Assembly (NCBI GenBank): GCA_041674185.1
Contig: JBAYWE010000005.1
Coordinates: 1 to 62,701 of the forward strand
DNA: 62,701 nucleotides
Direction: 5' to 3'
Source: Minisyncoccota bacterium
Lineage (GTDB): Bacteria > Patescibacteriota > Minisyncoccia > UBA6257 > JAGOQP01
The translations under genes and the position numbers were made by a program. The notes under the pieces are model-generated. The model saw only the letters and a list, made by a program, of their open reading frames with translations, was not told the DNA's origin and did not search any database. The first letter of the stretch is position 1. Each line of letters begins with the position of its first letter. Positions 21,674 to 29,025 of the stretch are shown here, piece by piece.

Positions 21674-21745
21674 GCGGGTATGGTATAATGGCTATTATGT
21701 CACCCTTCCAAGGTGAAGATGAGGGTTCGATTCCCTTTACCCGCT
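21674..21745 (+). tRNA. tRNA-Gly (anticodon TCC)
   Basis: Manual fold: GCGGGTA acceptor, anticodon stem TCACC/GGTGA with loop CTTCCAA, T-arm GAGGGTTCGATTCCCTT. Confidence 0.9.
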
Positions 21746-21748
21746 CAT

Positions 21749-21785
21749 AATAAAATTTTTATCCCTTGCGGATATAAATTTTATT
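21749..21785 (+). terminator. A/T-rich hairpin after tRNA-Gly
   Basis: 16-nt arms aataaaatttttatcc / ggatataaattttatt with one mismatch; loop cttgc. Confidence 0.45.
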
Positions 21786-21787
21786 AA

Positions 21788-21967
21788 GCGGGTAAAGTGA
21801 GCAAACTGCTTTGCTCACGTAGGGAATCGAACGACGGAGCATATGCGAGTAGCAACGAGCATAGCGAGTCGGTGGTTAGCCCGAGGAGTGCGACGGCACG
21901 ACGAGAGGCGAAACCGATGACCTTTACCCATTAGGGAGAGCAGACTGATGAAGAGGATTCCCTTTAC
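21788..21967 (+). ncRNA. tRNA-linked conserved element, copy E1 (unclassified structured RNA or miniature element)
   Basis: Shares long identical runs with 51475-51613. Contains agggaatcgaac, antisense to the tRNA-Gly T-arm. Ends with gattccctttac, identical to 21729-21740 of tRNA-Gly. Confidence 0.4.
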
Positions 21968-21979
21968 AAAAATTAATCT

Positions 21980-22003
21980 GGGCCGTTAGCTTAGTTGGTA
22001 GAG
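21980..22003 (+). pseudogene. 24-nt duplicate of the 5' end (acceptor plus D-arm) of the downstream tRNA-Ala
   Basis: gggccgttagcttagttggtagag is identical to 22060-22083. It is followed by the hairpin ggataaaaat...atttttatcc (22003-22034). Confidence 0.7.
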
Positions 22004-22059
22004 GATAAAAATATATATAGATACATTTTTATCCATTTGCTTTTTCTTTTAAAACATGT

Positions 22060-22135
22060 GGGCCGTTAGCTTAGTTGGTAGAGCGCGTCATTTGCAATGA
22101 CGAGGTCACCGGTTCGAATCCGGTACGGTCCACCA
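22060..22135 (+). tRNA. tRNA-Ala (anticodon TGC), CCA encoded
   Basis: Manual fold: GGGCCGT acceptor with G3:U70, anticodon loop TTTGCAA, T-arm CCGGTTCGAATCCGG, 3' ACCA. Confidence 0.95.
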
Positions 22136-22142
22136 AAAAAAT

Positions 22143-22170
22143 AAACCCCCTTGATGGGGGTTTATTTTTT
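22143..22170. terminator. Bidirectional Rho-independent terminator
   Basis: aaaccccc ttgat gggggttt followed by a T-run. Shared by tRNA-Ala (+) and the sortase gene (-). Confidence 0.7.
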
Positions 22171-22824
22171 ATCAGCAAAAACCACCGTTCGATTGGAATA
22201 CCTATTCTGATCTTCGTTCCAATCCCCTCCACACGTGATAAGATTCAAATGAACTTTTCCATCGGTTGAAATAAATACATCTGATGCATCTTGATTCTCT
22301 TTATAGGTCTCAACCCTGTTTACAGAAAAAATAGTAACCACTTTATTTTCATCTTCAATATATATTTCATCACCCTTGATTAAGGTATAGAGCACATCAA
22401 ACACAGCAGGGACGCCATCCTTCCATCCATAATGTCCGACTAAAACAGCATTACCAATTTCACCCGGAATCGGTCCCTGATTATACCAGGCAACTTCATG
22501 AGGGCTTTCAGGAGCATCCATAGCTCCTGTTGAAGTTAAGCCAACAGATATAACAGAAGCATTAATATTTATTTTAGGAATTCTAATACGGAATGGTTTT
22601 GTAACTGATAGAATTGAAGCTTCTACGTGTGCTACAGAGGGGGAAGAGAGAGCGCCTGTTTCACTTAAAAAAACAGAAGAACCTTTGATAAAAAATTCTG
22701 GGGTTTTTTTAATTAAGTTATCATAATTAAAATAAAGAAGGACAAGAGTACAAAAAATTATCGCCATAAGAACAATATATAATATCGTTCTCATAGAAAT
22801 AGTTTTTGTAAACATATATGTCAT
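22162..22824 (-). CDS. Sortase-family transpeptidase
   Basis: 220 aa. N-terminal TM, catalytic His (VLVGHYG), TLxTC-type Cys motif (LNLITCGG), conserved Arg (NRTVVFA). Confidence 0.8.
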   Translation of the reverse strand: MTYMFTKTISMRTILYIVLMAIIFCTLVLLYFNYDNLIKKTPEFFIKGSSVFLSETGALSSPSVAHVEASILSVTKPFRIRIPKININASVISVGLTSTGAMDAPESPHEVAWYNQGPIPGEIGNAVLVGHYGWKDGVPAVFDVLYTLIKGDEIYIEDENKVVTIFSVNRVETYKENQDASDVFISTDGKVHLNLITCGGDWNEDQNRYSNRTVVFADKK

Positions 22825-28763: not shown

Positions 28764-28912
28764 TGTCGGGCTGCCGGGAAATTTCACAACAAATCTATAT
28801 CGCTATAGATTTGTTTTAGAACCCCTCGGTTTCTAACACTCGCTTCGCTCGTTGTTTTCCTACACGGAAACCTTAGGTTTCCGACCCTTCCTATTTCAAT
28901 TCCTTTGAGTCC
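28764..28912 (-). ncRNA. tRNA-linked element, diverged copy E3
   Basis: Downstream of tRNA-Pro(GGG) and its terminator. Contains ggaattgaa, antisense to the tRNA-Pro T-loop. Contains aacgagcgaagcgagt, similar to the E1 core. Ends in a 17-nt copy of the tRNA 3' end (28764-28780 = 28953-28969). Confidence 0.3.
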
Positions 28913-28945
28913 AATAAAAACAAAAACGCCTCTTTGTGACGTTTT
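28910..28945 (-). terminator. Terminator-like hairpin after tRNA-Pro(GGG)
   Basis: aaaacg / cgtttt stem with a T-run on the minus strand. Confidence 0.4.
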
Positions 28946-28954
28946 TATTTTTTG

Positions 28955-29025
28955 TCGGGCTGCCGGGAATTGAACCCGGGTCGCACCCACCCCAAGGGTG
29001 TATACTGCCGTTATACTACAGCCCG
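28955..29025 (-). tRNA. tRNA-Pro (anticodon GGG)
   Basis: Manual fold: CGGGCTG acceptor, anticodon stem CACCC/GGGTG with loop TTGGGGT, T-arm CCGGGTTCAATTCCCGG. Confidence 0.85.

Follow-up and report, generated by a model that had tools for sequence, protein, structure and literature searches.

Predicted structured-RNA cassettes that track neighbouring tRNA genes in candidate phyla radiation bacteria

Genomic islands and prophages integrate in the T loop or at the 3′ end of tRNA and transfer-messenger RNA (tmRNA) genes, which provide the att sites of tyrosine integrases, while integrons are marked by an integrase gene and an attI site beside the array and by attC core sites of the GTTRRRY type. 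Here, we analyzed a 62,701-nt stretch of contig JBAYWE010000005.1 from a Minisyncoccota bacterium (GenBank assembly GCA_041674185.1; the whole stretch is hereafter called the window), in which a first-pass annotation made from the sequence alone had singled out an element, E1, behind the gene for tRNA-Gly(TCC). We found that E1 belongs to a large and apparently undescribed family of cassettes that lie downstream of tRNA and tmRNA genes in bacteria of the candidate phyla radiation (CPR). Each unit joins a spacer hairpin, a bipartite antisense segment (the guide) directed at tRNA nucleotides 53-73 and split at 65/66, a core folded as a three-way junction, and a sense copy of the tRNA running from position 56/57. 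We tentatively favour the reading that these units are non-autonomous cassettes that would insert at the T loop while preserving the tRNA, and put its probability, judged from sequence, at roughly 0.45.

The cassettes resemble T-loop islands, whose integration into tRNA genes leaves tRNA fragments behind (cf. PMC9897764), in several respects: a direct repeat of the tRNA 3′ part begins in the T loop, the tRNA stays intact, tmRNA is also used, tandem arrays occur, and strains vary. Among the features of integrase-type elements, they show the direct repeat beside an intact tRNA as well as both occupied and empty sites (locus L003 against L057, and E2 of the window against L171-L175), and they have no integrase or recombinase gene inside the unit. 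In contrast to integrase islands, they are only 140-190 nt long, without integrase, cargo or any reading frame, carry one core at almost every isotype, and contain an antisense copy of the target together with a covarying structured-RNA body. Similar to integron cassettes, they form arrays at a fixed entry point, have imperfect inverted-repeat ends around a variable centre, and are gained and lost as single units; unlike them, they come without IntI, attI, a Pc promoter or an open reading frame, their arms copy the neighbouring tRNA, and their centre is a conserved RNA fold. An assignment to integron cassettes or attC sites was rejected, as there is no integrase nearby and the T loop (GTTCRAN) has a C at the fourth position, in conflict with GTTRRRY.

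The E1 locus comprises, in order, the tRNA gene, an A/T-rich spacer hairpin, two guide parts separated by a hairpin (P2), the 85-nt core, and two sense copies of the tRNA 3′ part, X1 and X2 (Table 1). The tRNA gene does not encode CCA. Centred on the spacer hairpin, a long imperfect palindrome sets the tRNA-Gly 3′ end and its trailer against the spacer and the antisense module; its arms include 21732-21745 and 21787-21800. The string gcgggta occupies 21788-21794, and gggtaaag is able to pair with ctttaccc at 21922-21929. P2, which includes tgagcaaa-ctgc-tttgctca (21798-21817), interrupts the guide exactly opposite the junction of T stem and acceptor stem (nt 65/66). Guide part 2, AGGGAATCGAAC, is antisense to G53-T65, covering the T loop and the 3′ strand of the T stem, and its final GAAC is invariant in the family. 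In the predicted fold, X1 pairs with the guide and closes the RNA. The features that the first-pass annotation had listed for E1, namely the A/T hairpin, gcgggta, P2, the 12/12 antisense match and both sense copies, were all recovered at their positions. It had also taken X2 as the end of E1 itself; the 12-nt copy is present and perfect, corresponding to tRNA-Gly nt 57-68, but it probably ends a different unit. Since this distal copy is preceded by GAAGAG, the 3′ junction of type-2 units, with GAAGAG|GATTCC found identically at type-2 3′ ends in L003 and L055, E1 is probably a decayed two-unit array and X2 the end of a second, largely deleted cassette.

E2, behind tRNA-Leu(CAA), has the same organization and carries an 11-nt antisense match to its tRNA. 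The claims that the E1 core recurs at 51475-51613 and that one stem changes in a compensatory manner (tatgc/gcata in E1, tgtgc/gcaca in E2) both held, and the two elements adopt the same minimum-energy fold, with z-scores of -4.4 (E1) and -4.0 (E2). The covariance model R1, described below, recovers E1 and E2 alone in the window (93.2 and 93.8 bits; E about 1e-25); we attribute to chance a weak minus-strand match (22149-22231, E = 0.58) that overlaps the sortase gene at its end. Three copies had originally been counted. E1 and E2 do form one family, but E3, behind tRNA-Pro(GGG), agrees with them in layout and not in its core: in the region 28765-28953 (minus strand), a hairpin and a segment antisense to the T loop (GGAATTGAA) are combined with a core of 115 nt unlike theirs, and the tRNA-Pro 3′ end is repeated in sense at 16/16 positions (TTCCCGGCAGCCCGAC). 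Its fold has a z-score of -2.6, the type-1 model R1 gives no match to it, and a search for relatives of its core by shared 11-mers among the fetched loci found none. With E1-E3, three of the seven tRNA genes in the window have a cassette.

A degenerate search pattern derived from E1 and E2 was run on contigs of one genome per species and on metagenomes. The former yielded 10 true copies, from Saccharibacteria, Paceibacterota, Taylorbacteria and bins labelled 'bacterium', and at least 120 metagenome loci matched the pattern, all except two of the matches listed being real. Genomes and metagenomes together contain at least 131 real instances, every one on CPR-type contigs, and all named sources are CPR bacteria. 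The model R1, built from 117 distinct copies, gave 111 matches in 100 loci. Rfam 15, at gathering and at permissive thresholds (E up to 10), left the core unmatched in the window and in 20 loci, where matches were confined to tRNA, tmRNA and rRNA models; E1 had likewise been called unplaceable in any known family. We found no description of the cassette family in the literature searched, whose coverage, like that of Rfam 15, may be incomplete. Because every test for membership in a known system fails on one or more defining features, we rate the family as a new kind, within the same limits of literature and Rfam coverage.

The consensus of the 117 distinct copies contains 22 base pairs, 17 of them with compensatory changes. 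Standard pairs fill 93.2% of the cells, compared with 71.7% after column shuffling (none of 500 shuffles reached the observed value) and 33-45% when the partners were slid, and the covariation score is 0.544 as against 0.164. Two pairs that the search pattern had left free still pair: the first is C-G in 93 copies, A-U in 23 and another combination in one, and the second is G-C in 91, A-U in 13, G-U in 11 and A-C in two. Core pairs show G-U about three times as often as A-C, with the same bias in the helix between guide and copy (63 versus 22), and this excess indicates that the folded strand is the strand of the tRNA. Comparative analysis of the copies shows the cassette to be a structured RNA read in the tRNA direction, in agreement with the original proposal of a base-paired RNA or DNA hairpin as opposed to coding sequence or a random spacer; the further covarying copies that had been named as a check on it exist in number.

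The core is a three-way junction whose closing helix is made by guide and copy. Arm P4-P5 carries an AGCA/AGUA loop, arm P6-P7 a GACG loop between tandem G-A, and the junctions GAACG.CGGAGC, GCGAG.CGGUG, YAG and GAG.CG are near-invariant; the unpaired core nucleotides are deeply conserved across CPR classes. About three-quarters of the copies possess a 5′ module composed of the acceptor antisense segment, GA, the 9-bp hairpin and GU, and the remaining quarter or so begin at the T-arm antisense segment. In P2, all nine pairs show compensatory changes (11 copies), and 46 of 100 detected hairpins have the CUGC loop. This loop is complementary to the P5 loop GCAG/AGCA, and a kissing contact between P2 and P5 is plausible from the sequences; copies with other P2 loops show no compensating change. 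In a subfamily (L007, L015, L038, L061, L062, L085, L086, L096, L135, L157 and L165), the T-loop and T-stem bases of the sense copy have a small additional hairpin inserted between them, closed by a UACU loop (GCG-UACU-CGC, for instance).

The association with tRNA genes is specific to the individual neighbour. Altogether, 87 copies lie within 130 nt downstream of a tRNA or tmRNA gene on the same strand, the partners being tRNAs for Leu, Ser, Gln, Gly, Lys, Arg, Trp, Glu, Ala, Met, Ile, Asp, Val, Pro, Tyr, Asn and Cys as well as tmRNA. The gap between tRNA end and cassette is 30-100 nt and the tRNAs are called intact, while instances without an adjoining tRNA are mostly at contig ends or behind other DNA. 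Within tRNA clusters, the last tRNA alone is followed by a copy, and L120 and L073 have one at the end of each tRNA transcription unit. The 5′ end of the cassette is antisense to tRNA nt 53-65 and often, across the 9-bp hairpin, also to nt 66-73. Between the 13-nt antisense T segment and the cognate G53-N65 there are zero to two mismatches in 65 of the 87 copies, compared with a mode of three to five for non-cognate tRNAs, and the acceptor antisense has at most one mismatch in 8 nt at the canonical 25-nt spacing in 26 of the 87. The sense copy starts at C56/R57 of the T loop and has a local score of 16.3 against cognate and 7.0 against non-cognate tRNAs; it most commonly stops at the tRNA end, giving 19-21 nt, with some copies reaching into the trailer, and the direct repeat spans 7-83 nt. 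These comparisons show that guide and copy track the neighbouring tRNA, and the suggestion that antisense and sense segments co-vary with whichever tRNA is adjacent is upheld across the family.

The antisense segment is a complement of the 3′ strand of the tRNA and no duplicate of its 5′ strand, as is evident at tmRNA, where it has an A opposite U70 while the tmRNA 5′ strand has a G (G3-U70). In E1, E2 and L057, the guide is still complementary to the tRNA although the 3′ copy within the cassette is truncated. About 12 clean positions at which guide pairing with the tRNA can be set against pairing with the copy mostly favour the tRNA, a comparison that is confounded by indels and hairpin insertions in the copy and is at best suggestive. 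In five of 34 testable cases (L145, L119, L139, L153 and L112), the sense copy includes CCA while the tRNA gene lacks it, and an origin of the sense copy from reverse-transcribed tRNA is weakly suggested. Inspection of L036 by eye also revealed CCA in the sense copy beside a tRNA gene without it.

Mixed tandem arrays, in which each unit ends in a tRNA copy and units with cores of different types have the 5′ module in common, occur in L003, L015, L019, L047, L055, L123 and L151. The flanks of L003 and L057 are 96-100% identical, and L003 contains an extra type-2 unit beside tRNA-Trp, bounded by the 19-nt repeat GATTCCTAGTGCCCCCGCA; in the type-1 unit common to both loci, the P6-P7 arm has been replaced wholesale. 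E2 is missing from the orthologous tRNA-Leu/ParA locus in four relatives (ParA 72-87% identical). Presence and absence at orthologous tRNA loci, which the first-pass annotation had proposed to compare, show at the level of sequence that units are gained, lost and shuffled like cassettes and that modules are exchanged. Most copies have a distal repeat that runs on as the tRNA's original 3′ end and trailer, with the exceptions given below.

Some arrays have further peculiarities. At least two additional core types, type 2 (...GGAAGAG|GATTCC) and the type of L151, share the antisense/sense layout and partly the CUGC hairpin, and alternate with type-1 units in L003 (4690-4790, minus strand), L055, L015 (725-839) and L151. 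In L098 (about 900-1260, oriented), a tRNA-Asp 5′ half comes first, then a complete tRNA-Asp with inverted sequences on either side, and then a 3′ half with the acceptor strand of another tRNA; the guide matches the foreign half and the sense copy matches tRNA-Asp, an arrangement that looks like mis-targeted T-loop recombination. Two successive units in L019 (5900-6300, minus strand) end in identical 32-nt segments, each a tRNA copy with 14 nt of trailer, that differ from the adjacent tRNA-Ser(CGA) and match the 3′ end of tRNA-Ser(GCT) in L111.

Table 1. Positions of the cassettes, their parts and their partner genes in the window, and of the tRNA-adjacent serine recombinase in other loci (locus coordinates)
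Feature	Position	Strand	Evidence or comment
tRNA-Gly(TCC), partner and target of E1	21674-21746	+	ARAGORN; Rfam tRNA model, 65.9 bits
A/T-rich spacer hairpin, tRNA-Gly to E1	21748-21786	+	arms 21748-21764 / 21770-21786, 17 nt, 94%
E1 guide part 1, AGCGGGTAAAG	21787-21797	+	antisense to tRNA-Gly acceptor 3′ strand and discriminator, 11/11
E1 P2 hairpin, 9-bp stem, CUGC loop	21797-21818	+	inverted-repeat search
E1 guide part 2, agggaatcgaac / AGGGAATCGAAC	21821-21832	+	12/12 reverse complement of 21725-21736
E1 type-1 core, three-way junction	21829-21914	+	fold, covariation; model R1, 93.2 bits
E1 X1, sense copy of tRNA 3′ part, cgatgacctttaccc / CGATGACCTTTACCC	21915-21929	+	13/15
Probable remnant of another cassette (type 2), with X2 at its end	21930-21967	+	junction ...GAAGAG|GATTCC
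X2, perfect copy of tRNA-Gly nt 57-68, gattccctttac / GATTCCCTTTAC	21956-21967	+	12/12
E3, cassette with another core	about 28765-28903	-	behind tRNA-Pro(GGG), 28954-29025
tRNA-Leu(CAA), partner of E2	51351-51433	+	tRNA call
E2, second type-1 cassette	51474-51613	+	model R1, 93.8 bits
E2 guide, first part	51474-51481	+	
E2 P2	51481-51502	+	
E2 guide, second part	51505-51516	+	
E2 core	51513-51598	+	
E2 sense copy X, CAAGTCCCTCCCCGA	51599-51613	+	15/15 to tRNA-Leu
Serine recombinase, L177	6001-6744		
Serine recombinase, L178	1437-2157		
Serine recombinase, L179	6001-6741		
Serine recombinase, L118	268-1023		
Serine recombinase, L051	about 5489		

Mobility is supported by the repeat that runs from T-loop position 56/57 to the tRNA end, by the arrays, by the difference between near-identical strains, and by absence at orthologous loci. 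Of the three possibilities raised in the first-pass annotation, the best fit is a miniature integrative element that has its att sites in tRNA 3′ ends; an RNA that pairs with its own tRNA may also be considered, as the guide is complementary to tRNA nt 53-73, and so may a tRNA-derived scaffold, as the closing helix reproduces acceptor and T stems. According to the insertion model, the unit would enter the T loop between C56 and R57 and supply a replacement tRNA 3′ end together with a hairpin; the tRNA gene would stay intact, and its displaced old 3′ end would become the distal repeat. The guide would align target nt 53-56 (GAAC:GUUC) beside cassette nt 57-76 and fix the joining point C56|R57. 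Because the cassette encodes no protein, the joining enzyme would have to act in trans. The transcript would be closed by the acceptor/T-stem-like helix and probably trimmed by tRNA-end processing enzymes. If this is true, the cassettes are elements consisting only of a structured RNA gene, with a site chosen by base pairing with a tRNA gene; such programmable targeting, protein-free in cis and residing in the smallest bacterial genomes, would imply a trans-acting joining activity.

Several observations weigh against insertion. Clustering of neighbour proteins over 120 loci showed housekeeping synteny only, with no recombinase, reverse transcriptase or transposase enriched within 5 kb, and none of these was found among the window genes. 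Two exact-pattern scans covering 2.9 million viral contigs, together with blastn of phage records, returned zero cassettes. Copies at different tRNAs share at most 92-93% core identity, and recent retargeting was not seen. In E1, E2, L003/L057 and about 20 others, identity with the tRNA stops inside the acceptor strand, where attL/attR sites predict that it continues. Rewriting of the guide at a new tRNA is left unexplained by the model, and the conserved unpaired core nucleotides and the near-saturated tRNA units of L120 would also fit a host function.

A host-serving RNA gene is a strong alternative, even if we regard it as somewhat unlikely. Here, a stable small RNA with a tRNA-like closing helix that mimics the acceptor and T stems of the neighbour would be processed by RNase P, a 3′ end nuclease and the CCA-adding enzyme; its tRNA-specific guide would let it act on the tRNA or tmRNA, for example to regulate, sequester or repair the 3′ half, and recombination in the conserved T loop would, as a rare side effect, have spread it among tRNA loci. 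Besides the deep conservation of unpaired core nucleotides across CPR classes, such a gene would suit the core-genome contexts without mobile genes, the copy at the end of every tRNA transcription unit in L120 and L073, the guide complementarity kept in E1, E2 and L057 despite a truncated 3′ copy, and copies that usually end exactly at the tRNA 3′ end, with CCA added in 5/34. It sits poorly with a sporadic distribution (three of seven window tRNAs and none of four relatives at the orthologous tRNA-Leu), with gain and loss at the strain level and module swapping, with several different cores behind one tRNA, and with truncated copies that are unable to supply a functional 3′ end; moreover, some repeats go past the tRNA end and take in trailer sequence, as would be expected if DNA had been copied. 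If the RNA did serve the host, tRNA-specific RNAs of this kind would form a large new class, with one RNA for each tRNA and a guide and a spare 3′ end in each, and we know of nothing comparable in bacteria. Whether mobile or host-serving, a family with hundreds of public copies and strong covariation is missing from RNA catalogues, and its members will cause confusion when tRNA fragments and intergenic regions are annotated in CPR genomes. With the alignment and model R1, the question becomes directly testable.

Trailer processing and a folded-DNA site are less likely explanations. We consider it improbable that the cassette is a cis-acting module of the 3′ trailer with a role in termination, insulation or processing of the precursor, such as a long hairpin of tRNA 3′ half and guide that a double-strand-specific RNase would cut. 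Such a module would agree with the constant same-strand position behind only the last tRNA of a cluster, with the long imperfect palindrome of tRNA 3′ end and trailer versus spacer and guide, and with the ability of phage theta ribozymes behind tRNAs to process trailers (PMC10879173), but most tRNA units in the window and the relatives lack a copy, a conserved 110-nt core and a sense copy would be superfluous for termination, and multi-unit arrays are hard to account for. In addition, known self-cleaving ribozyme models were all unmatched, and the copies stand 30-100 nt from the tRNA end rather than abutting it. [quoted passage not shown] The cassettes are comparable to them as small structured RNAs behind a same-strand tRNA with a proposed action on its 3′ end; they differ in their distance from the tRNA, their location on CPR chromosomes, their tRNA copies, and the lack of viral copies in the scans described above. 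With HDV-family models unmatched, the gap of 30-100 nt and a different helix topology, an HDV-like theta ribozyme was rejected.

The chances are slimmer still that the unit acts as folded single-stranded DNA, in the manner of the attC sites of integrons or of CTX phage with its folded attP, with the two copies pairing to rebuild the tRNA 3′ duplex and a structure-recognising recombinase joining it. A resemblance to attC arrays does exist in the order of antisense, core and sense parts, in the stacking of units at one entry site and in the variable centre, and tolerance of G-T pairs on the same strand is also expected of folded DNA. Covarying internal hairpins, conserved loops and strict junction nucleotides, however, typify functional RNA and not the centre of an attC site; an integron-type integrase is not found nearby, and the T loop, read from the sequence, falls outside the integron core-site consensus.

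Engineered trans-splicing group I ribozymes consist of a 5′ guide, a catalytic core and a 3′ replacement exon. The cassettes have the same order of parts, with a guide, a core and a sense copy that extends from a fixed junction to the natural 3′ end, and by this analogy they could be a natural RNA-repair or trans-splicing device acting on tRNAs or tmRNA with a damaged 3′ half, a reading that we consider very doubtful. The guide would hold the damaged molecule, its invariant GAAC pairing with G53-C56, and the core would act as the catalyst that joins the cassette-borne nt 57-76 to the tRNA body, yielding a replaced 3′ half that sometimes includes CCA. In contrast to the engineered ribozymes, the cassette core measures only about 90 nt and has no group I features, and the likeness is architectural only. 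A group I intron was rejected: intron models were unmatched, the core is too small, and there is no G-U at the putative junction.

The bridge RNA of IS110 and the seekRNA of IS1111 elements are encoded beside a DEDD recombinase gene and hold guides for adjacent target halves in open internal loops. In both cases, a non-coding RNA of about 150-180 nt has segments that match both target strands and is part of a mobile element, a putative one for the cassettes. In the cassettes, by contrast, one and the same part of the tRNA is matched by the antisense and by the sense segment, these two base-pair together, and there is no linked recombinase. The absence of a DEDD recombinase gene from the window and the loci led us to reject an IS110/IS1111 RNA. 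Similar to tmRNA, viral tRNA-like structures and the tRNA-like domain of bacterial Y RNA (PMC4201824), the cassettes have a stacked acceptor and T-stem-like helix and a tRNA-type 3′ end, but their T-loop bases are paired with the guide, the core replaces the loop, the discriminator is often paired, and the stems copy the neighbour. The cassettes are called neither by ARAGORN nor by the tRNA and tmRNA models of Rfam, and membership among tRNAs, tmRNAs or tRNA-like structures was dismissed.

A miniature inverted-repeat or other non-autonomous transposon was rejected because the ends vary with the neighbouring tRNA and the repeat varies in length (7-83 nt), in place of constant terminal inverted repeats and a duplication of fixed length; tmRNA, introns and such transposons had been set aside in the original note as well, rightly so on the results given here. 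Hammerhead junctions (CUGAUGA/GAAA) are absent from the sequence, the bulge that might suggest a K-turn has 1 nt and not 3, and a bulge-helix-bulge intron is discounted as the hosts are bacteria. Chance similarity or decayed tandem tRNA duplicates without conserved structure would leave both end segments tRNA-derived, as they are, yet were rejected, with a negligible probability: across a set of over 130 copies, each helix shows compensatory changes, the same core lies beside at least 17 tRNA isotypes and tmRNA, and the antisense strand is the Watson-Crick complement of the 3′ strand.

The window genes are those of the core chromosome of a Paceibacterota-like organism (ligA, type IV pilus genes, ComEC, murA/murB, rpoB/rpoC, parA/parB and sortase), and the named relatives of its ParA belong to Patescibacteria, Paceibacterota and Wolfebacteria. 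A partial 5′ duplication of the tRNA-Ala gene adjoins the E1 array: positions 21976-22003 repeat the beginning of tRNA-Ala(TGC) and the ATNTG in front of it (28 nt, 96% identical to 22056-22083), and this copy has its own A/T hairpin (22003-22034) and sits just upstream of the complete tRNA-Ala (22060-22135). Elsewhere, some copies without an adjacent tRNA sit behind a reverse transcriptase, a methyltransferase with a Schlafen-type protein, or a RelA/SpoT-like protein. In L118, 1.4 kb of accessory DNA separates tRNA-Gly from a cassette whose copy matches that tRNA at 19/19 positions.

Beside the tRNA-Gly of L118 lies a C-terminal remnant of a large serine recombinase, and L051 is the only other locus with such a remnant next to a tRNA. 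The recombinase family numbers 414 homologues, 55-91% identical, across CPR classes, and the gene always overlaps the tRNA 3′ end in antisense, within the last ~42 nt, at tRNA-Val (2), tRNA-Glu (1) and tRNA-Gly (2). A type-1 cassette was sought on three contigs with the large serine recombinase, and none was found; for this reason, we regard the recombinase as a second tRNA-targeting element and as no more than a candidate helper of the cassettes. Most database entries of the recombinase cover the C-terminal 220-300 aa, probably through TTG starts or truncation. A full-length gene of 520 aa lies beside tRNA-Val in L179 (5003-6671), flanked by 116-nt inverted repeats that are 99% complementary, and its coding region contains about 10 perfectly nested inverted repeats of 14-20 nt, far above chance, which suggests that the whole gene folds as one structured strand.

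A conserved region of ~200 nt lies about 80-300 nt upstream of cassettes without a tRNA (L124, L118, L059/L103, L070 and L051) and also beside the recombinase repeat in L179 (4880-5000). It features a G/C-rich hairpin, GGCGGAAGGGGGGTGTGGGGGGAATTCCGCC, and an ...AAAA.GTTCG... motif, and it has no match in Rfam. Finally, frames of the LAGLIDADG homing endonuclease type, identified by motif recognition only, occur near cassettes in L010/L149 and two other loci.

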